Virus record (IMG/VR): IMGVR_UViG_2667527431_000001
DNA length: 22,992 bases
Source: an uncultured virus (IMG/VR IMGVR_UViG_2667527431_000001)
Taxonomy: Duplodnaviria > Heunggongvirae > Uroviricota > Caudoviricetes
Reading direction: 5' to 3' (one strand)
Positions within the stretch are counted from its first letter, which is position 1. Each line of letters starts with the position of its first letter. The position numbers were made by a program, and so were the translations under genes. The notes beneath the pieces are model-generated. The model had not been told where the DNA came from, searched no databases, and worked only from the letters and a program-made list of their open reading frames with translations. This document shows positions 3,679 to 21,675 of the stretch, piece after piece.

Positions 3679-4260
3679 TCAATGCTTGTGATTGGGCGTG
3701 TTGCCGCTTGTGTCGATAATTGCCCCGCCACCGTTGATATTGCCCATTACGCGTAACCCGCCGTTGATCAACACTTCACCGTAGATCGTCAGGTCGCCAT
3801 CGAGTGCAATTGCCCCGGACGTGACGACCACCGCGTTATCCGTAACGGTCGCCGATGAACCACCCACCTTGATATCCACCGAGCCGGTCGGCAGCACAAT
3901 GCTGTAACTGTGGGCCTGCCAGTCATAAGTCAGCGACCCGCCATCATCGAACAGCCAGAGCTCGACGTGATCGCGGTTATCCGGGGCGGGGCCGGCATCG
4001 CCAAACAATCCCGGTACAAAGGTGCCTTGTGAAACGTCACCACTTGGGCTGAGCAAAGCGCCCTGCTCGCCCATGCTGGGCACCCGCCAGTGCCGCGCCT
4101 TGCCCGCCGCCTGACTGTGCCAGCGCACCCAGGCACTGACCCATTCGCCGTCCGACACCCGGCACACGGGCGGCATGGTCGCAAGGTCCAGGGCGACCAC
4201 ATAACAGCCCTTGACCACCCCGGCGATCATGCGGTCGTGTTCGGCAAGTGCGTGGCTCAT
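3679..4260 (-). CDS. Baseplate assembly/spike protein V (P2 gpV family)
   Basis: WVRW..AAGKARHWRVPSMGEQ..LLSPSG motif, beta-helix-like repeats and a terminal HxH iron-binding motif (NHKH). Confidence 0.93.
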   Translation of the reverse strand: MSHALAEHDRMIAGVVKGCYVVALDLATMPPVCRVSDGEWVSAWVRWHSQAAGKARHWRVPSMGEQGALLSPSGDVSQGTFVPGLFGDAGPAPDNRDHVELWLFDDGGSLTYDWQAHSYSIVLPTGSVDIKVGGSSATVTDNAVVVTSGAIALDGDLTIYGEVLINGGLRVMGNINGGGAIIDTSGNTPNHKH

Positions 4261-4748
4261 GGGTCAACCTCAACATTCACGCTGAACACCAGCGAACCGG
4301 GCGGCTCATCCGGCCACGGCCATTCCGTTTCACCTAGGTAAATCGTCTGGGTCCACTCCACCAGCCACACGGTGTAGCCATCAAGCTCCGGGCGGGTCCA
4401 GTCCTGGGTTGAACGCTTGAACTCGGCAGGCTCAACCGCCAGCCCCCACGTCTGAGCGCGCAACAACACCGCCAATTGCGTGGCAAGGTGAATGGCCTGC
4501 TGGTAATGCTGATCACGGATCACATCAACAATCACCCGTGCTTCAAAGGTAACGTTCAGCGTGCTTTCGCCGGTGCCGATATCGGTACCCGGCTCGATCT
4601 CGGCGATGTCGAGAAATACGGCTGGCAGCGGGATGTGCTGCTCGATGTCAGGCCAGAAGCGGACCAACTGAACACCTGACAGCTGCTCTTGCAGATGCTG
4701 TTCAATGGTTTGATACAACAGGTCGAGGCTAAACGGCTGTTCAGACAC
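4257..4748 (-). CDS. Probable tail completion/terminator-type structural protein
   Basis: Lies between the gpZ-like gene and gpV with overlapping start/stop codons. Has the LPAVFLD and WLVEWTQTIYLG pattern seen in such neck/tail proteins. Confidence 0.65.
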   Translation of the reverse strand: MSEQPFSLDLLYQTIEQHLQEQLSGVQLVRFWPDIEQHIPLPAVFLDIAEIEPGTDIGTGESTLNVTFEARVIVDVIRDQHYQQAIHLATQLAVLLRAQTWGLAVEPAEFKRSTQDWTRPELDGYTVWLVEWTQTIYLGETEWPWPDEPPGSLVFSVNVEVDP

Positions 4749-13038: not shown

Positions 13039-13065
13039 AAAAAACCCGGCGCAATGGCCGGGTTT
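13039..13065 (-). terminator. Late-leader terminator (tR'-like)
   Basis: Minus strand AAACCCGGC-CATTGC-GCCGGGTTT-TTT, between the late promoter and holin. Confidence 0.8.
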
Positions 13066-13116
13066 AGTGGTGGGTGTCGGCCGCTCTCTGCGGTCGCACC
13101 TATCGAAGATGACTAC

Positions 13117-13145
13117 TTTTTACAGGTGGAATTTACTGGCAGCAA
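13117..13145 (-). promoter_or_regulatory. Putative sigma70 late promoter (pR'-like)
   Basis: TTGCTG-N17-TAAAAA upstream of the terminator and holin. Confidence 0.6.
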
Positions 13146-16320: not shown

Positions 16321-16831
16321 GGTCAGTACCCCGCGTAGTCGAGTTGACGTAGCAGGCGCGATTGAACATGCCCAGCAGCCCCTGAATACCGCGAAACACC
16401 TGCAAGCGGATCTCGGCCAGTTCGCGGTCATTGACCACACCGTCGCCGATGCTCTTGGCCCAGGTATCAGCCAAATCGGCTACCTGCCGGAAATACACGG
16501 CAAGGCCAGTGGTCAGCGTTTCGGGTATATCGTCGGTATAGGCTTCGGCCAGTTCCTGCCAGATCGTGTCGCCCACCAACGCATGCACCGCATCCAGGAT
16601 GCGGCGGTCTTTAGTCAGCTCCAGGATCTCGGCGAATTCTTGAACATTCACCGTGTGGCTTGGGTGGGTCGGAGACAGCTTGTGCTGCAGCGTGGTGGGA
16701 TTACGGCCGGTGGTGGCGGCGATGGCAGCAGCGCCACCCGGGTAGTCGCGGGCAGCGTGATACAGGGCCAGATCGAGCGGCAGAATTTCGCGGCGCGCTC
16801 GTTGGGTGCAACTAAGAGCAATACGGCTCAT
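16313..16831 (-). CDS. Phage regulatory CII-family protein (186/CP76-like)
   Basis: YPGGAAAIA...TLQHKLSP...H and DGVVNDRE motifs; downstream of cro. Confidence 0.85.
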   Translation of the reverse strand: MSRIALSCTQRARREILPLDLALYHAARDYPGGAAAIAATTGRNPTTLQHKLSPTHPSHTVNVQEFAEILELTKDRRILDAVHALVGDTIWQELAEAYTDDIPETLTTGLAVYFRQVADLADTWAKSIGDGVVNDRELAEIRLQVFRGIQGLLGMFNRACYVNSTTRGTDRG

Positions 16832-16891
16832 GGCATTAATCCTTGAATGTTGCCAGTGCCGCGCGGCGTGCTGTGGTGGTACATTTGCCGC

Positions 16892-17161
16892 GTGGCTTGT
16901 AAGGGCCCAAAAAGCCGGTCTAGATTCTTAAGATCGAAACCGGCACCGTGCCGAGGCGAGCGATCCGTCGCTCACCTCTGGCGCAACAGCTGCCTGATCT
17001 GTGGTGGAGAAGGCAGCAACCCAAAGCTTCCGAGCCTTGGAAAGCGCGGTTAAGGGAGGCGGAATTGCATGTGGTGTGCCCGCCTACCTTGACCGCGACC
17101 CGGCGACACTGTGGTGGTGTGTGCTGGGAGGAAATGGGCGGCCTTATTGGTCGCCTTTTTT
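16892..17161 (+). ncRNA. Predicted multi-hairpin small RNA antisense to the cro-cII interval
   Basis: Back-to-back hairpins with UGUGGUG or UCCG loops, G-U pairs favouring the + strand, an extended -10 (TGgTACATT, 16877-16885) and a + strand terminator. The 5' end is uncertain and could be about 16858. Confidence 0.7.
17137..17161 (+). terminator. Intrinsic terminator on the + strand, with no + strand CDS upstream
   Basis: GGCGGCC-TTATT-GGTCGCC-TTTTTT. Confidence 0.8.
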
Positions 17162-17165
17162 CTAT

Positions 17166-17387
17166 CTAGGCCGCCTTGGTTTCCGTCACACCGAAGTGAT
17201 CAAGAACCTCAGCGAGCGATACACGACCTTCGCTTTGGCGGGTCAATGACTTGATCAGCGAAACGCTTGGGTCTTTGCTGGCGTACTTAACGTGCAAACG
17301 CAGGTAGTTGACCGCGATCTTGCAACGCCCGGCGTAAGCCTGCAGTGCGTCTGAATCTAAGCTGTCGATGTAGTCACGCAATTTCAT
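17166..17387 (-). CDS. cro: Cro-like HTH regulator
   Basis: ATG at 17387 with GGAGG RBS; 73 aa (MKLRDYI...YAGRCKIAVNYLR...PS); divergent from the repressor. Confidence 0.85.
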   Translation of the reverse strand: MKLRDYIDSLDSDALQAYAGRCKIAVNYLRLHVKYASKDPSVSLIKSLTRQSEGRVSLAEVLDHFGVTETKAA

Positions 17388-17409
17388 GTGGTGTACCTCC
17401 GGGTGACGC

Positions 17410-17481
17410 AATTTAACCACAAAGGTTAACTATTGCAATACCTCTAAGGACATTCACCCCATAGGTTAATCTGGGCACAAT
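17410..17481. promoter_or_regulatory. Immunity switch: PR-like and PRM-like promoters with 17-bp operators
   Basis: Minus strand TTGCAA-N17-TAAATT (17438-17410); plus strand TTCACC-N17-CACAAT (17453-17481). Operators TTAACC-N5-GGTTAA (17413-17429) and TTCACC-N5-GGTTAA (17453-17469). Confidence 0.75.
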
Positions 17482-17487
17482 CACTGC

Positions 17488-18135
17488 ATGAGAATTTCAG
17501 ATACTCGCCTGCACAATTTCCGCCAGATCCTGGCCGAAAAAAAACTACGCCTGATCGACATTGCCGAGCTGCTCGGCAAAGCGCCTGCGCAAGTGAGCGC
17601 TTTCGGCGGGAAGAACCCAACCAAAGGAATTGGCGATCAAATTGCGCGTGAAATTGAAAGAGCCCTCAGCCTGCCTAACGGCTCGCTCGACATCCCGCAT
17701 GGTTTTGCAAATTTCGATAACGGCTCTGTACTGGGCTACACCGGCAGGAAACTGCCTGTGATCGGCTCAATCGCTGCAGGCGCCTGGTGCAGTTCTGAAG
17801 AAAACTTTGATCCGCGCGATGCTGAAGAATGGATCGAAGCACCTGGACCGGTTGGGCCGCGTGCATTCATCCTTCGCGTTGAAGGCATCAGCATGGAGCC
17901 CAAGTTTATGGAAGGCGATAAGGTTGTTATCGATCCATCGCTTGACGCTTTCCCTGGCCACTTTGTGGCAGCCAAGCGCACACGCGACGAGGCTACAACG
18001 CTAAAGCAACTTAAACAGGAAGGGAGCGAGTTGTATCTGTACGCGCTCAACCCTGACTGGCCAGAGCGCATTATTCGGATGACTGAAGAGTGGAGCATTT
18101 GTGGGCGGGCTAGGTGGAAGATTTCAGATTTATAG
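17488..18135 (+). CDS. CI/PrtR-like repressor with S24 autopeptidase domain
   Basis: N-terminal HTH, AG cleavage site (IAAGAW), catalytic Ser (VEGISMEP) and Lys (TTLKQL), and ALNPDW. Confidence 0.95.
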   Translation: MRISDTRLHNFRQILAEKKLRLIDIAELLGKAPAQVSAFGGKNPTKGIGDQIAREIERALSLPNGSLDIPHGFANFDNGSVLGYTGRKLPVIGSIAAGAWCSSEENFDPRDAEEWIEAPGPVGPRAFILRVEGISMEPKFMEGDKVVIDPSLDAFPGHFVAAKRTRDEATTLKQLKQEGSELYLYALNPDWPERIIRMTEEWSICGRARWKISDL

Positions 18136-18143
18136 CGGGTATT

Positions 18144-19502
18144 TCAACTGTTATAAACATCATCCACAGGTGCAGGTGCAGGTGCAGGTGCAGGTGCAGG
18201 TGCAGGTGCAGGTGCAGCTTCGCTCTTATTAGAAGTATCTAACTCAGACATATTAATTTTAGATCCTAAATCTTTGGCCAAGTGTGACTTCAACATTTCT
18301 ATTTTCAATCTAGTTCTCAAATGAAACTTTTCAGCAGGATCTATCCCTAAATCTTCAGCAGTCGAAAAAACTGTATTCTTTGCCAAAATGAGCAATTTTG
18401 CCAAAGCAAGGCGTTCTTCCTGAATAGAAAAAATCTTGACCATGAAGGCATGAGCTATCCGCCAAGAATAGTAGATTGCCCCACCTACAACTGCTGCAAA
18501 GGGAAGGCGCAAAAAAAATGCAGCAACAACATCCGCAGCACTCACATAATGAGCAGATAGGAAATTCCCTGCACCATTAAATATCACTGCCACACCCAAC
18601 CCAATAACAAACGCAGGAACCACCATCAGCCGCAAATATACCGCTGCCTGCCCCTTCCCCTCTTTTATATAGTCAGAGAACTCATCTGAGATAAGACTTC
18701 TGTCGTTTACGAGTCCCGAAAGCTGTTGTTTAAGGTCGGCAACCCCATCATTTAAATTTTTAGTTTCTCTTGTTAGTTGTTGTAAATTATTTTGCTTTGC
18801 CTGTAGTTCAACAACTACGTTACTAAGACCTGCCTTCAAAGCCTCTGCATCGGACTCAAGTTCATTCAGGCTCTTTTTCCCTCTTTTAATTGCAACATCT
18901 AACTCCTCAGACTCCTTAGTCTGTTTTGAAATAACATCTACATATTCATCAATCTCTTCAGACAAGGTTTCATGCTTAACTTCTAGCGCAGCAACAGCCT
19001 CCTTCGACTCTTTAACATGTGTAGTAACTTTATAGGCGGCAGATGCAAACTCAACTAGCGTAGAGCGCATATCTTTTGGCCTAGTGAACTCAAAGCCATA
19101 AATAGTAATTGTCGACAACTTAGGCCTTGCAAGAACTCCTTTCGTACGAATAGAAAACTTTGAACAGAACTCATTCACTGATACCCAGCCACCTCTTGAG
19201 CCCACCTCTACAGTTAAAGCTTTTGACTTACCTTCTGAAGTATACAAACACAGTTCAATACTCTTATAAGCCTCACCAATAAAGTCTATTCGCCTGATAA
19301 ATACCGGGGTTGTCGTTTGGAAAACTCTTTCCCGCTTTTCTAAATCAATACTCTTTTTACCAGCCACCTGGGGAGACAACATAGGTGAAAAAAGAGGAGT
19401 AGTAGAGAAGCTCCTAGTTATGTTATCAACTGTAAATGATAACGCTTCAATATTCGAAACCAGCTCATCTAACTCAGTAGTAAATAACGTCATAGTACTC
19501 AC
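18144..19502 (-). CDS. AT-rich cargo gene: coiled-coil protein with two predicted TM helices, function unknown
   Basis: 452-aa ORF in markedly AT-richer DNA. It has a long heptad region, two hydrophobic segments (LMVVPAFVIGLGVAVIF; VVAAFFLRLPFAAVVGGAIYYSW) and an (AP)8 tail. The start could be GTG 19502 or ATG 19493. Confidence 0.85.
   Translation of the reverse strand: MSTMTLFTTELDELVSNIEALSFTVDNITRSFSTTPLFSPMLSPQVAGKKSIDLEKRERVFQTTTPVFIRRIDFIGEAYKSIELCLYTSEGKSKALTVEVGSRGGWVSVNEFCSKFSIRTKGVLARPKLSTITIYGFEFTRPKDMRSTLVEFASAAYKVTTHVKESKEAVAALEVKHETLSEEIDEYVDVISKQTKESEELDVAIKRGKKSLNELESDAEALKAGLSNVVVELQAKQNNLQQLTRETKNLNDGVADLKQQLSGLVNDRSLISDEFSDYIKEGKGQAAVYLRLMVVPAFVIGLGVAVIFNGAGNFLSAHYVSAADVVAAFFLRLPFAAVVGGAIYYSWRIAHAFMVKIFSIQEERLALAKLLILAKNTVFSTAEDLGIDPAEKFHLRTRLKIEMLKSHLAKDLGSKINMSELDTSNKSEAAPAPAPAPAPAPAPAPVDDVYNS
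18167..18217. repeat. Perfect hexanucleotide tandem repeat (CAGGTG)x8.5
   Basis: Read directly; encodes (Ala-Pro)8 on the minus strand. Confidence 0.95.
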
Positions 19503-19607
19503 GCTCTTATTTTGACATCACTATGACATCAACCGATTAATAAGGCCAAACCTTGATGCTCTATCCCGTTAGCGCCTGAACCAAAAAACCAAATAGAGCA
19601 TTTTTTC

Positions 19608-19635
19608 TTGTAAAATTAACCTTTCAGGTTATTAT
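19608..19635 (+). promoter_or_regulatory. PL-like early promoter with repressor operator
   Basis: TTGTAA-N16-TATTAT overlaps TTAACC-TTTCA-GGTTAT (19616-19632), which matches the operators at 17413 and 17453. Confidence 0.72.
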
Positions 19636-19670
19636 CGTCTCACTCTCCCACCACAGAGCGAGGCAACACC

Positions 19671-19850
19671 ATGCACACCACAGCAACCCTGCACGTCCAC
19701 CCAGCGTGCGCCAGTAACCGTCGACTGATCGAGCAGCTGCAAGCCACCACCGGCTGTCTAGTCATCCTTCACAACCACAAACCCCGACTGGTCCCGCACA
19801 GCAACAGCCCTGCCCCGTTCGATCCAAACAACGGAGGGCATGCAGCATGA
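19671..19850 (+). CDS. Small hypothetical phage protein (59 aa), not in the ORF track
   Basis: GAGG RBS; MHTTATLHVHPACASNRRLIEQLQATTG...GGHAA; the stop overlaps the next start (ATGA). Confidence 0.8.
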   Translation: MHTTATLHVHPACASNRRLIEQLQATTGCLVILHNHKPRLVPHSNSPAPFDPNNGGHAA

Positions 19851-20440
19851 ACCGGTTTTTTTTGGCTGATAAAACCCTTCGCCTGCTGGCTGCGCAGGTC
19901 AATTTGAACGGCACGTTTCGCCACTCGTGCAGCTTCAAAAATACCAACCTGCCGTTGATCTTCGTACTGCAGGTTGAGCGCGGCTCCTCTGGCACGCTTT
20001 TCACCATTGTTTCCGGCGAAGAGAAGCACAGCCTGACGGTTTACGACCCCGACAAAGACACACACCTGGTACTCGCTGACTTTATTGAGTCCATCGCCAA
20101 CGGCCGCATGGACACTGCCGAGCCAGCAACACCGCGCGTGCGTGCTGAATCTGTCGATCGCGGCCAGCTACTGGATGCCAATCAACAAGAGTTGCTGCAG
20201 AAACTGGTGCGCAAAGGTGGCTCGTTGTTACTCGATGTCGGTCTGGATGAAGCTGTCAGCTTGGCAGTGCATCGCACACAGAGCCGTAAAGGCATCACGG
20301 CGATACTGATCGCCGGCGACAGTTACCCGCGCACTCAGTGCTTTACCGCTTATGGCGACGACCAGCACAGCTTTAGCCGGCTGCTTCAGTCGCTCGATCA
20401 CTTAGTCGCGTCGGCGACTTCTACCGCGCTCGCAGCCTAG
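19847..20440 (+). CDS. Hypothetical phage protein
   Basis: 197-aa ORF, GGAGG RBS, translationally coupled to the previous gene. Confidence 0.8.
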   Translation: MNRFFLADKTLRLLAAQVNLNGTFRHSCSFKNTNLPLIFVLQVERGSSGTLFTIVSGEEKHSLTVYDPDKDTHLVLADFIESIANGRMDTAEPATPRVRAESVDRGQLLDANQQELLQKLVRKGGSLLLDVGLDEAVSLAVHRTQSRKGITAILIAGDSYPRTQCFTAYGDDQHSFSRLLQSLDHLVASATSTALAA

Positions 20441-20448
20441 GGGGTGTT

Positions 20449-20742
20449 ATGGAACGCACCCTCTCCAAAGCCGCTGCGTGCCTAGGCACTACCCGGCCAA
20501 AACTGATCAAGTTGATGCGCGAAAAAGGACTGCTCAACGAACGCAACCTGCCTGCCTTCCCGGTTAGGGACCGTGAGTATTTGCGGATAAAGGACAGCAA
20601 CTGGTTTCACGCCGAACTCGGCATGCAGTACAGCCAATCAACCCGGGTACGTCAGTCTGGCATCGCTTGGCTGGCCGAGCAGTTGGGCCTGACCCTTCCA
20701 GCAATTCCAGCAATTCCAGCTGATCACCGTGACGTGGCCTAG
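20449..20742 (+). CDS. Antirepressor KilAC (ANT) domain protein
   Basis: TLSKAA..LG..RPKL...MREKG.L....LP and TRV...GIAWL pattern. Confidence 0.8.
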   Translation: MERTLSKAAACLGTTRPKLIKLMREKGLLNERNLPAFPVRDREYLRIKDSNWFHAELGMQYSQSTRVRQSGIAWLAEQLGLTLPAIPAIPADHRDVA

Positions 20743-20908
20743 GGAATACGCTCGGCAGATCGTGGCCATGCCGACACGCGAGGAGCGCAACGCTGCGCTC
20801 CTTGAAGTGCCGGAGCATTTGCGCGAACTGACCAAGCGACACTGCCTGAATGCCTGGAACCACCCGGCCCGGCTCCAACCAAAACCGAGCACACCAGCCC
20901 ATGACTAA
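20729..20908 (+). CDS. Small hypothetical phage protein (59 aa), not in the ORF track
   Basis: GTG start; MTWPREYARQIVAMPTREERNAALLEVPEHLRELTKRHC...; fills the gap and overlaps both neighbours. Confidence 0.7.
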   Translation: MTWPREYARQIVAMPTREERNAALLEVPEHLRELTKRHCLNAWNHPARLQPKPSTPAHD

Positions 20909-21227
20909 TGCCAACCAAAGCCCTCTACGGCTGCTGCCAGCACCGGATGCGGACACCGTAGAGCTGCTGTACCGCAATTTTGGTGACGTGCTGATCCCCC
21001 TCGACAAGCTGCGCGTGCAGTACTTTCGCCACCTCAACGAGCAGTCTTTTGCGGCAGAGATCATCAGCGGCCGGATTCAAATACCCGTAATCACACTCGA
21101 CAGCAGCCGCAAGGCGCCGAAGTTCGCTCACATCCGCCACGTTGCCGCGCTGATTGATATTCGCGCCTACAAGGCTGACGAGGAGCTGGCCAGACCGCAA
21201 AGCGGCACACCGGATAAAGACGACTAG
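20901..21227 (+). CDS. prtN: Pyocin activator PrtN family protein
   Basis: TVELLYRNFGDVLIPLDKLRVQYFRHLN...GRIQIPVITLDSSRKA...HVAALID closely resembles P. aeruginosa PrtN (recalled). Confidence 0.88.
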   Translation: MTNANQSPLRLLPAPDADTVELLYRNFGDVLIPLDKLRVQYFRHLNEQSFAAEIISGRIQIPVITLDSSRKAPKFAHIRHVAALIDIRAYKADEELARPQSGTPDKDD

Positions 21228-21268
21228 CCAGCGCTGCCACCACCGGCGCCGCACCAGGAGCACACCAC

Positions 21269-21406
21269 ATGACCCCGACCCAGATCAGCGCACTGATCTT
21301 TTTGACATTGAGCGCGGCCTTGCTCTATTGGCTCGGCTACCGCAACGGCCTGGCCGATGGCCGCAAGCATCACCCTGAATACCGCACCCGGAGAAAAGCG
21401 GCATGA
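21269..21406 (+). CDS. Small single-TM protein (45 aa), not in the ORF track
   Basis: AGGAG RBS; MTPTQISALIFLTLSAALLYWLGYRNGLADGRK...AA; ATGA overlap with the next ORF. Confidence 0.75.
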   Translation: MTPTQISALIFLTLSAALLYWLGYRNGLADGRKHHPEYRTRRKAA

Positions 21407-21675
21407 CGCACTCACTGACCAACTGCCTACCCCTGCCCGCTTTGCTCCGCAACACCAGTGGGATCGATACGCCTGTAAAAAACAGTCTCTGCTGCGCAGC
21501 AGCAGGCATTACTAAAGCTTTTCGCGCCACTGCGGGGGTGCTTATACCCCACATAAAGCTGCGCGAGGCAGCGCGCATTGATGCCCCGCTAAGCGCTCAA
21601 AATCGCCCGCCCGCGCAGCTTGTGGTGGGGTATACGCACCCAGGCACCGCTATCAAAGGGGATGGCCATGCGTAA
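21403..21675 (+). CDS. Hypothetical phage protein
   Basis: GGAG RBS; coupled to both neighbours; no recognisable domain. Confidence 0.55.
   Translation: MTHSLTNCLPLPALLRNTSGIDTPVKNSLCCAAAGITKAFRATAGVLIPHIKLREAARIDAPLSAQNRPPAQLVVGYTHPGTAIKGDGHA

Follow-up and report, generated by a model that had tools for sequence, protein, structure and literature searches.

The window analyzed here, a 22,992-nt stretch from an uncultured Caudoviricetes virus, carries a structured RNA gene between cII and cro, and short complements of its hairpin loops lie at the translation starts of early phage genes. This raises the question of whether one RNA could regulate several early genes through loop-site pairing, as an earlier note on this DNA had proposed for cro and for the operon leading to the antirepressor, prtN, xis, and int. 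A few enterobacterial model phages supply the known examples of RNA-based immunity (P1/P7 c4, P4 CI, and P22 sar).

Structure, strand, and spread of the RNA gene

The RNA gene, its loops as predicted by folding, and the neighboring cro-like gene are as follows:

16845..17162, plus strand: structured RNA gene of ∼318 nt between cII and cro; 5′ end inferred, 3′ end set by the terminator
16858..16896, plus strand: hairpin with loop 1 (TGTGGTG at 16872-16878)
16989..17017, plus strand: hairpin carrying loop 2 (TCTGTGGTGGA at 16998-17008), which is partnered with site T1
17046..17096, plus strand: hairpin with loop 3 (GCATGTGGTGTGC at 17067-17079); fold −31.1 kcal/mol, z −6.06
17100..17127, plus strand: hairpin carrying loop 4 (CTGTGGTGGTG; TGTGGTG at 17110-17116), which may pair with site T3
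17136..17162, plus strand: intrinsic terminator of the RNA (terminator scan), convergent with the cro 3′ end
17166..17387, minus strand: cro-like gene of 73 aa (ORF list), divergent from the S24 repressor gene at 17488-18135

Alignment of the RNA gene showed compensatory changes in 28 of its 91 predicted pairs, and the terminator stem and T-run are kept across the 61-sequence alignment except in its most divergent row (L090). The plus strand is favored by the excess of G-U over A-C cells in the alignment (853 vs. 54). The opposite strand likewise folds well (z about −7), and the RNA is fully antisense to the 320-nt cro–cII spacer of the leftward transcript. By-eye reading of a conserved TGGCA..TGCCA element as a sigma-54 or sigma-70 promoter gave nothing convincing, and that assignment was rejected.

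Searched over the whole window at gathering score, Rfam returned no family match for the RNA gene, C4 included; with E up to 10, the region 16750-17250 gave only three sub-threshold, unrelated matches (mir-2985, mir-1976, and CsrC). Among 400 genomes of other Pseudomonas species, 65 carry the multi-hairpin gene, which is also present on at least 120 contigs in IMG/VR and in three cultured phages of P. aeruginosa. A blastn query of the RNA plus cro against cultured phages matched in the cro part only, after which the P. aeruginosa phage relatives were recovered via the orf59 protein. An order-wide DNA search of 401 genomes yielded, besides the window's own genome, just one other genome, from the same genus, and a weak match of 24 nt; at blastn sensitivity, all RNA loci come from one genus. 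We found no description of the RNA in searches of non-subscription literature or in passages of a review (PMC12197685). In RNA library X2, a contig at 16934-17111 on the RNA gene had a mean depth of 515, compared with 43 for the cro–cI contig and 5–13 for operon contigs, these being assembled contigs, which give neither strand nor transcript ends and whose depth cannot rank genes.

Complementary sites at early gene starts

Sites complementary to the loops were located in the int-proximal early operon and at the cro start:

19608..19635, plus strand: promoter-like site of the operon, with a TTAACC-N5-GGTTAT palindrome at 19616-19632
19637..19664, plus strand: T1, hairpin in the leader that displays CCCACCAC as its loop and has the GAGG Shine-Dalgarno sequence in its 3′ arm
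19671..19850, plus strand: orf59, with which the operon begins (unknown-function PHROG 35204/13491)
19674..19685, plus strand: T2, codons 2–5 of orf59, complementary to loop 3
21231..21249, plus strand: T3, small hairpin with CCACCAC, ∼25 nt ahead of the orf45 start
21260..21271, plus strand: T4, GCACACCACATG, the spacer between Shine-Dalgarno and ATG plus the start codon of orf45
21269..21406, plus strand: orf45, a peptide of 45 aa that has a single hydrophobic helix and a basic tail (unknown-function PHROG 28176)
17385..17397, minus strand: GGTACACCACATG at the cro start, matching loop 3 over 13 bp that include one G-U

Every site quoted in the earlier note is where it had been placed, with its complementarity correct. 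The source records label orf59 a "hypothetical protein," and neither orf59 nor orf45 obtained a function from Pfam, PHROG, cluster names, or Atlas. The palindrome at 19616-19632 resembles one at 17413-17429, as spotted by eye, and both may be operators. The cI gene and a low-GC insert separate the RNA gene from its targets; for the 452-aa insert protein, PADLOC gave weak coiled-coil matches only.

The T1 hairpin folds at −13.5 kcal/mol, a value attained by 2 of 200 shuffles, and its stem pairs the GAGG Shine-Dalgarno sequence of orf59, in agreement with the earlier description of a small hairpin that presents (C)CCACCAC in its loop and whose 3′ arm overlaps the GAGG ribosome-binding site. Within it, CCACCACAGA at 19648-19657 is the complement of the loop 2 stretch 16998-17007. 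All 61 of the 61 loci carry a homologue of orf59, nearly all of them with a readable leader site, and in 109 of 159 loci the T1 site lies 24 nt ahead of the orf59 start. Downstream of the start codon, GCACACCACA at 19674-19683 complements loop 3 (17070-17079), and the first seven T2 positions are paired with loop 3 in 151 of 161 loci. The overlapping CACCACAGCA at 19676-19685 complements 16869-16878 in the loop 1 hairpin; a conserved phage target for loop 1 was sought and none was found.

The arrangement at T1 also admits the opposite outcome. With the Shine-Dalgarno sequence tied up in T1, pairing at this site could release it, and loop 2, whose complement takes in both the T1 loop and the upper part of its 3′ arm, might activate orf59 by freeing GAGG. 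We regard activation as quite unlikely, given that loop 3 spans the orf59 start codon (T2) and the orf45 start, and that c4 and sar cover the initiation region and so block translation (PMC12197685).

At orf45, T4 is a perfect 12-nt complement of the loop 3 stretch 17068-17079, and the spacer between Shine-Dalgarno and ATG is invariant among related loci, whereas its flanks vary. In 130 of 136 loci, a CACCAC precedes the start of orf45 by 12–60 nt, and the T3 sequence ggctgCCACCACcagcc was found again in related loci. The stability of the T3 fold in the window is no better than that of shuffled sequences (100 of 200 equally good). The conserved orf59 and orf45 sites occupy non-coding or start-codon positions, and the predicted duplexes in the window are −26.3 kcal/mol for L3–T4, −23.2 for L3–T2, and −21.6 for L2–T1.

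The remaining proposed targets were less widely shared. The cro-like protein had no match in Pfam or PHROG. Its start does carry the complement: GGAGGTACACCACATG, which is 17385-17400 read on the opposite strand, forms 13 bp with 17068-17080, a single G-U included. However, CACCAC at the cro start was seen in only 8 of 43 cro homologues and is lineage-specific, and a Shine-Dalgarno..ACCAC..start arrangement within 700 nt past the terminator was present in only 8 of 174 loci, so that general silencing of cro is unsupported. The partial match noted ahead of prtN, GCACACCA at 20889-20896, is likewise present in the window but not conserved (CACACCA in only 2 of 61 related loci), and we rejected it as chance. 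The cI start lacks a CACCAC-type site, as had been observed.

Motif counts exceed chance expectation in the window. CACCACA occurs 13 times vs. 3.74 expected, a count attained by 0 of 100 shuffles; the loops of the RNA itself account for four copies and the claimed targets for another four, and five lie elsewhere, namely the internal copies reported earlier (924, 10584, 11118, 14184, and 21621). With up to one mismatch, GCACACCACATG has 3 copies vs. 0.15 expected and CCACCACAGA has 7 vs. 1.70, neither count being reached in 100 shuffles. Exact complements of at least 10 nt in the host genome numbered 610, with 12-mers expected by chance, and the best of them (a 15-nt hit at G000 4357147 and one of 13 nt at 1568108) were not at clear gene starts.

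A different use of the same pairing would be that the RNA serves mainly in cis-antisense control of the cro–cII transcript, in the manner of OOP and cII, with the CACCAC sites of the early rightward mRNA acting after induction as decoys that take up the RNA and thereby lift this control. The RNA is antisense to the cro–cII spacer over its full length and would therefore fit as a cis partner for that transcript, the minus strand folds well, and four target sites on a single abundant early mRNA would suit titration. Also compatible with this role is a further CA-rich element at 13100-13040 of the leftward strand, with a terminator after it, which was seen again in 71 of 106 loci. Decoys, however, would not need to sit exactly on the Shine-Dalgarno spacers and start codons of two genes, and structural selection acts on the plus strand. 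We judge this explanation unlikely as the main function of the RNA, although it is compatible with trans-acting control of orf59 and orf45.

Matched changes in loops and sites across relatives

The earlier note had called for a co-variation check, and the related loci provided one. Of 136 loci, 129 show complete pairing of loop 3 with T4 across 12 positions, and 7 have a mismatch. Three allele classes were distinguished, every one a perfect Watson-Crick match:

93 loci: CATGTGGTGTGC with GCACACCACATG
19 loci: CATTTGGTTTGC with GCAAACCAAATG
10 loci: CATGTGGTTTGC with GCAAACCACATG

The orf59 start (T2) tracks the same loop 3 allele as T4. Where position 10 of loop 3 is G (n = 129), the opposite T2 base is C in 114 loci, U in 13, and A in 2, and where it is U (n = 32), the opposite base is A in 31 and C in 1. 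For loop 2, G at base 9 faces C in T1 in 126 of 127 loci, and GG-to-AA loop variants accompany CC-to-UU changes in T1; compensation is incomplete here, with A-loops opposite U in just 16 of 32 loci. One locus that lacks loop 3 (L089) also lacks CACCAC at the orf45 start. Same-locus pairing exceeded permuted pairing for L2–T1, L3–T4, and L3–T2 (0 of 1000 permutations each), and L4–T3 showed no consistent covariation in the main family (379 of 1000).

The region from the RNA gene to its targets is mosaic and spans 1.17–5.4 kb. Of 127 canonical loci, 33 have a homologue of cro and 78 have one of cI, and loop-site matching persists regardless. In the P. aeruginosa phage Haddon, an independent and distant lineage, the loop sequences differ and the sites still match, with perfect complements of 15 nt at T1, 10 nt at T2, 12 nt at T3 (the equivalent of L4–T3), and 11 nt at T4.

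These patterns bear on the suggestion that CACCAC(A)/TGTGGTG is a protein-binding element, either a nut/boxB-like RNA site or a DNA operator, with one protein binding both transcripts. The motif lies in hairpin loops of both transcripts in sense orientation, and its core is almost invariant. Yet the RNA bears the complement of the sites rather than the same strand, and a single RNA-binding protein would therefore miss one of the two. Adoption of the loop/site alleles GGUUUGC/GCAAACC is moreover pair-specific, being confined to loop 3, T2, and T4 while, within those genomes, loops 2 and 4, T1, and T3 keep GUGGUGG/CCACCAC; target-side variants are mostly wobble-compatible, and a position between Shine-Dalgarno and ATG is a signature of translation-level control. 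A nut-like protein-binding motif would fit these sequences poorly, and we consider it very unlikely.

With loop columns masked, a tree built from the RNA gene has two changes at L3[10], one at L3[5], and two at L2[9]. The per-locus counts above overstate the support for covariation because independent loop-change events are few, and with about five of them tree sign tests cannot reach significance. This scarcity, together with the origin of all loci in one genus at blastn sensitivity, would be expected if the operon were conserved by shared ancestry alone and the complementarity had no function. We give that explanation almost no weight, since the orf45 spacer is invariant between variable flanks, two-sided double changes hit precisely the positions predicted, in two different targets, the distant Haddon matches at four sites with different sequences, and the motif is enriched over shuffles. 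The earlier reading is supported in part: one plus-strand RNA has loops complementary to conserved bipartite sites at orf59 and orf45, and the L3–T4 and L3–T2 alleles are matched among relatives. On sequence evidence, the matched loop-site changes point to a putative RNA-based layer of lysogeny control.

Proposed mechanism and comparison with known systems

We think it probable that the gene encodes a trans-acting antisense RNA of a new family, similar in action to P1 c4, that blocks the starts of orf59 and orf45. The ∼320-nt RNA would be transcribed from the plus strand from its own putative promoter, end at its own terminator, and form a row of hairpins, four of them displaying a GUGGU-centered loop. 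Acting in trans on the mRNA of the cI-controlled operon heading to int, it would kiss the loop of T1 through loop 2 and pair through loop 3 over both the orf59 start codon (T2) and the spacer and start codon of orf45 (T4); loop 4 may bind T3, and in the window's lineage loop 3, besides T4 and T2, would match the cro start as well. The predicted duplexes of 10–13 bp fall within ribosome-binding windows, and their most likely result would be blocked translation initiation of orf59 and orf45 in the lysogen, with possible polarity on the downstream KilAC Ant-like gene, PrtN-like gene, xis, and int. The sequences establish the RNA fold, its strand, the complementarity, and the conservation with matched changes; repression, polarity, expression pattern, and any immunity function are what we infer for the RNA from these features.

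More speculative, and in our view somewhat doubtful, is the larger proposal that a large group of temperate Pseudomonas phages uses this molecule as its master immunity RNA, with loop 3 alleles defining heteroimmunity groups and the 13100-13040 element serving as an anti-sRNA. If so, each kissing loop of one RNA molecule would be addressed to a different site, and heteroimmunity would follow the loop 3 alleles GGUGUGC, GGUUUGC, UUUGGUUUGC, and Haddon-type CAUGGUGGU, independently of cI/cro type, as c4 does for P1/P7. The CA-rich, terminator-linked element could then lift the block at induction.

An unrelated and much larger RNA, common among Pseudomonas prophages, would join the few enterobacterial examples. 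Its putative targets can be read straight from natural compensatory alleles, which supply ready-made mutant/rescue pairs, and the same reading offers a means of predicting which phages cross-regulate. For the cII–cro spacer, the RNA gives reason to drop the hypothetical-protein annotation. The pairing also suggests a design principle in which G/U-rich loops face C/A-rich sites, such that any target-side transition is tolerated via wobble pairing.

Several known systems share some of these features. In nut/boxB elements the same loop sequence recurs on the regulated transcripts and is bound by one protein, whereas here loops and sites are complementary, not identical. In type I toxin-antitoxin systems with a trans-acting sRNA, such as tisB/istR, the sRNA represses a short hydrophobic toxin by covering the start of its gene. 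The start of orf45, a 45-aa product with a hydrophobic stretch, would similarly be covered by loop 3, although the window RNA is far larger than in type I pairs and has other targets too, and orf45 lies within a phage operon. The P4 CI RNA confers immunity by pairing with repeated complementary sites on the early transcript; it is cut from the transcript that it controls and causes premature transcription termination. The sites of the window RNA are instead on start codons, and no sequence or Rfam similarity to P4 CI was found. Of the phage antisense RNAs, sar (P22) lowers ant and OOP (lambda) lowers cII, both affecting the lysis-lysogeny decision (PMC12197685). Like OOP, the window RNA is convergent with a rightward-type early operon near cII, but sar and OOP are short cis-antisense RNAs with a single overlapping target, whereas the sites here are unlinked and matched in trans over 10–13 nt.

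The nearest counterpart is c4. RNAs of the c4 type lie upstream of their targets on a shared transcript and are released from it by processing. The window RNA is instead a separate gene with its own terminator, 2.5 kb and 4.1 kb from its targets. It is also larger (∼320 nt with four or five loops, vs. ∼77 nt and two loops), lacks an Rfam C4 match, and addresses two genes while being antisense to the cro–cII spacer. In P1/P7 c4 (immI), the loops pair with short sites around the ribosome-binding site in an antirepressor-type operon, and specificity is set by loop sequence (PMC12197685). The window RNA resembles c4 in having loops complementary to ribosome-binding-site regions (L3–T4 and L3–T2), with L2–T1 in the leader.

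Genome setting and the structured RNA gene

The window comes from a prophage carried by a 5.07-Mb Pseudomonas genome, and its regulatory region is arranged as listed here, from the replication genes to the early operon.

Minus, after the DksA-type gene: Toprim/VapE primase-helicase gene
Minus, after the CII/CP76 gene: DksA-type zinc-finger gene
16831 to 16313, minus: CII/CP76 activator gene (cII)
Between the cro-like and CII/CP76 genes, in minus-strand order: 320-nt spacer
About 16845-17162, plus: structured RNA gene ("the RNA")
17387 to 17166, minus: cro-like gene, 73 aa, no family match
17488-18135, plus: S24 repressor gene
18144-19502: low-GC insert in the cI-to-early-operon interval, with a minus-strand 452-aa gene
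19608-19635: promoter-like site ahead of the orf59 operon
From 19671, plus: early operon of orf59 (19671-19850), orf197, KilAC Ant-like gene, small ORF, PrtN-like gene, orf45 (21269-21406, 45 aa), orf90, xis-like gene and int

The RNA is real and plus-stranded. Comparison of the cII-cro spacer with Rfam returned no family match. Of 400 genomes from other species of the genus, 65 have a version of the spacer with 72-96% identity, often with the adjoining cro absent. In a 61-sequence alignment, 28 of the 91 predicted pairs show compensatory changes, and under the plus-strand structure G-U occupies 853 cells versus 54 for A-C, a signature of selection on a plus-strand RNA. A plus-strand intrinsic terminator is retained in every row of the alignment but the most divergent one, and local folds place GUGGU in the apical loops of four hairpins (loops 1-4). 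In run X2, an RNA library from the same strain type, mean depth was 515 for a contig spanning 16934-17111, against 43 for the cro-cI contig and 5-13 for operon contigs; a second run (X3) gave a single contig of depth 71.5 covering 16913-17972. Being assembled contigs that carry neither strand nor ends, these depths are only a hint of abundance.

An inverted repeat, TGGCA-N15-TGCCA (16831-16855), extends over the start of cII and the first conserved positions of the RNA gene. Possible roles are as a promoter element, as a 5' stem within the RNA or as a site bound by the CII-type activator. The repeat is retained in three related loci (L094, L095 and L098) in which the RNA gene is tandemly duplicated with no adjoining cII start; in L094 and L095 the two copies lie around 3700-4330, between cII and the convergent gene. 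Separately, a TTAACC-N5-GGTTA(A/T) palindrome, read by eye, occurs both in the cI-cro divergent region (17413-17429) and on the promoter-like site ahead of orf59 (19616-19632), and this match suggests that one repressor may control both regions. The 452-aa insert protein is a coiled-coil protein with hydrophobic segments and, at its C terminus, an (Ala-Pro) run for which a repeated GTGCAG hexamer codes (tandem repeat at about 18168-18226); its only matches in PADLOC, Pfam and PHROG were weak ones to coiled coils.

Complementary sites at early-operon starts

The earlier note had proposed that complements of the RNA loops lie at the translation starts of cro and of early-operon genes. Checked on the window sequence, the sequences it quoted are where it placed them and pair as it claimed. 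The orf45 start (21260-21271) forms a perfect 12-bp duplex with loop 3 at 17068-17079, and the orf59 leader (19637-19664, facing loop 2) and codons 2-5 (start site 19674-19685) each have a 10-nt match to other loops; codons 2-4 of orf59 additionally offer loop 3 a 10-nt match. The motif CACCACA occurs 13 times versus 3.74 expected, a count reached in none of 100 shuffles. Allowing at most one mismatch, the 12-mer occurs three times versus 0.15 expected, and CCACCACAGA seven times versus 1.70 expected.

The leader hairpin of orf59 folds as the earlier note described, with its own Shine-Dalgarno sequence paired. The small hairpin upstream of orf45 (21231-21249), its proposed counterpart, is no more stable than shuffled sequences in the window, and the partial match before prtN lacks conservation. 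At the cro start the 13-bp pairing with 17068-17080, including one G-U, stands in the window, but it is not a family feature: CACCAC is present at the start in 8 of 43 cro homologues, and an ACCAC between a Shine-Dalgarno sequence and a start, within 700 nt past the terminator, occurs in no more than 8 of 174 loci. Since a 13-bp match is hardly explained by chance, the cro site may nonetheless work in this lineage. No convincing candidate emerged among host targets.

Among 60 related loci of 10-19.5 kb each (61 with the window), an orf59 homologue was found in all 61, in almost every case with ctcactcttCCACCACAGAGcgagg as the leader hairpin and ATGCACACCAC at the start. An orf45 homologue occurs in 54/61, with AGGAGCACACCACATG in almost all and freely variable sequence immediately upstream. 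The targets are conserved at positions for which coding gives no explanation.

Two further elements carry related words. Upstream of the xis-like start, the plus-strand cttGTGGTGGGGtata (21615-21630) shares the word GUGGUGG with the RNA loops, and its minus-strand form tatacccCACCACAagctgcgcgggcggg is found again in several related loci; possible roles are pairing with the CCACCAC hairpin (21231-21249) of the same operon mRNA and recognition by a recombination protein. On the minus strand at 13040-13124 lie a hairpin, a CA-rich single-stranded stretch (GACACCCACCACUAAA) and an intrinsic terminator, within a gap of about 500 nt that comes after the 196-aa ORF found downstream of primase. Of 106 related loci whose sequence reaches far enough upstream, 71 have this element. 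Because the CACCAC within it is the complement of the GUGGUG loops, the element may be a second small RNA, or else a 3' end, pairing with the larger RNA; no covariation with loop 3 alleles was seen.

Covariation of loops and sites

Co-variation of loops and targets across related prophages, named in the earlier note as a check, was found: all 12 positions of loop 3 and the orf45 spacer are paired in 129 of 136 loci, and three classes, with 93, 19 and 10 loci, match perfectly. Natural loop 3 alleles include GGUGUGC, whose matching site is GCACACC, and GGUUUGC, matched by GCAAACC; loop 2 GG/AA variants go with CC/UU in the orf59 leader hairpin. A pattern search of IMG/VR added contigs to the set: at least 120 canonical ones, 35 in which loop 3 differs at position 10 and three differing at position 5 only. 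Opposite position 10, orf59 codon 2 has C in 114 of the 129 G-loops, U in 13 and A in two; in the 32 U-loops it has A 31 times and C once. Loop 2 GUGGUG stands opposite C in 126/127 loci, and GUGGUA opposite U in 16/32. A locus without loop 3 also lacks the orf45 site, and divergent five-loop relatives show matching likewise. No consistent covariation linked loop 4 to the hairpin at 21231-21249 in the main family, and no conserved phage partner of loop 1 was found.

Mere shared ancestry of loops and sites is a rival reading, though a very unlikely one. The stretch from the RNA gene to its targets is mosaic, with loop-site matching maintained; on an RNA-gene tree built with the loop columns masked, loop 3 changes twice at position 10 and once at position 5, loop 2 changes twice at position 9, and the orf45 partner of loop 3 shifts the same way every time. 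With two pairs, significance is out of reach of a sign test on the tree, and the permutation results, weakened by the relatedness of the loci, suffer from the same small number of events.

A second line of evidence comes from the P. aeruginosa phages Haddon, LPPA36 and vB_Pae_U5, an independent lineage with the gene order of the window. In Haddon the cII-cro spacer contains the RNA in diverged form. A hypothetical protein annotated there (PQ571161, CDS0011, minus; L258 5080-5220) lies entirely within the RNA homologue and is probably not a gene. The Haddon loops differ; perfect complements are nonetheless present at four equivalent places, and both start-codon sites pair with one loop, as in the window.

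Perfect complements of the RNA loops in phage Haddon
orf59 leader hairpin: 15 nt
Across the orf59 start codon: 10 nt
Hairpin 3' of the PrtN-like gene: 12 nt
Across the next start codon: 11 nt

A protein-binding motif shared by loops and sites is a further, unlikely reading.

Proposed action and comparison with known systems

A trans-acting antisense RNA is the best reading. The loops would seed kissing contacts, from which 10-13-bp duplexes would form over the orf59 and orf45 initiation regions and block their translation in the lysogen; the Ant-like and PrtN-like genes, xis and int would be affected only through a presumed polarity. Two less likely readings are that the sites serve as decoys and that pairing at the leader hairpin, where the Shine-Dalgarno sequence is sequestered, activates. 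The cro-cII spacer also lies antisense to the RNA, which makes a parallel cis effect on cII and on the genes for replication likely.

No description of the RNA turned up in literature listings or in passages of a review (PMC12197685). At blastn sensitivity, a search of 401 genomes of the order found none outside the genus; beyond the window's own genome, the only hits were one further genome of that genus and a single 24-nt match. The RNA bears a loose likeness to the CI RNA of P4. It would work like c4 of P1/P7 and more loosely resembles P22 sar and lambda OOP, as the review describes these RNAs (PMC12197685). It falls outside the Rfam C4 family, and it differs from c4 in size and loop number, in lying unlinked to its targets and in having two target genes.
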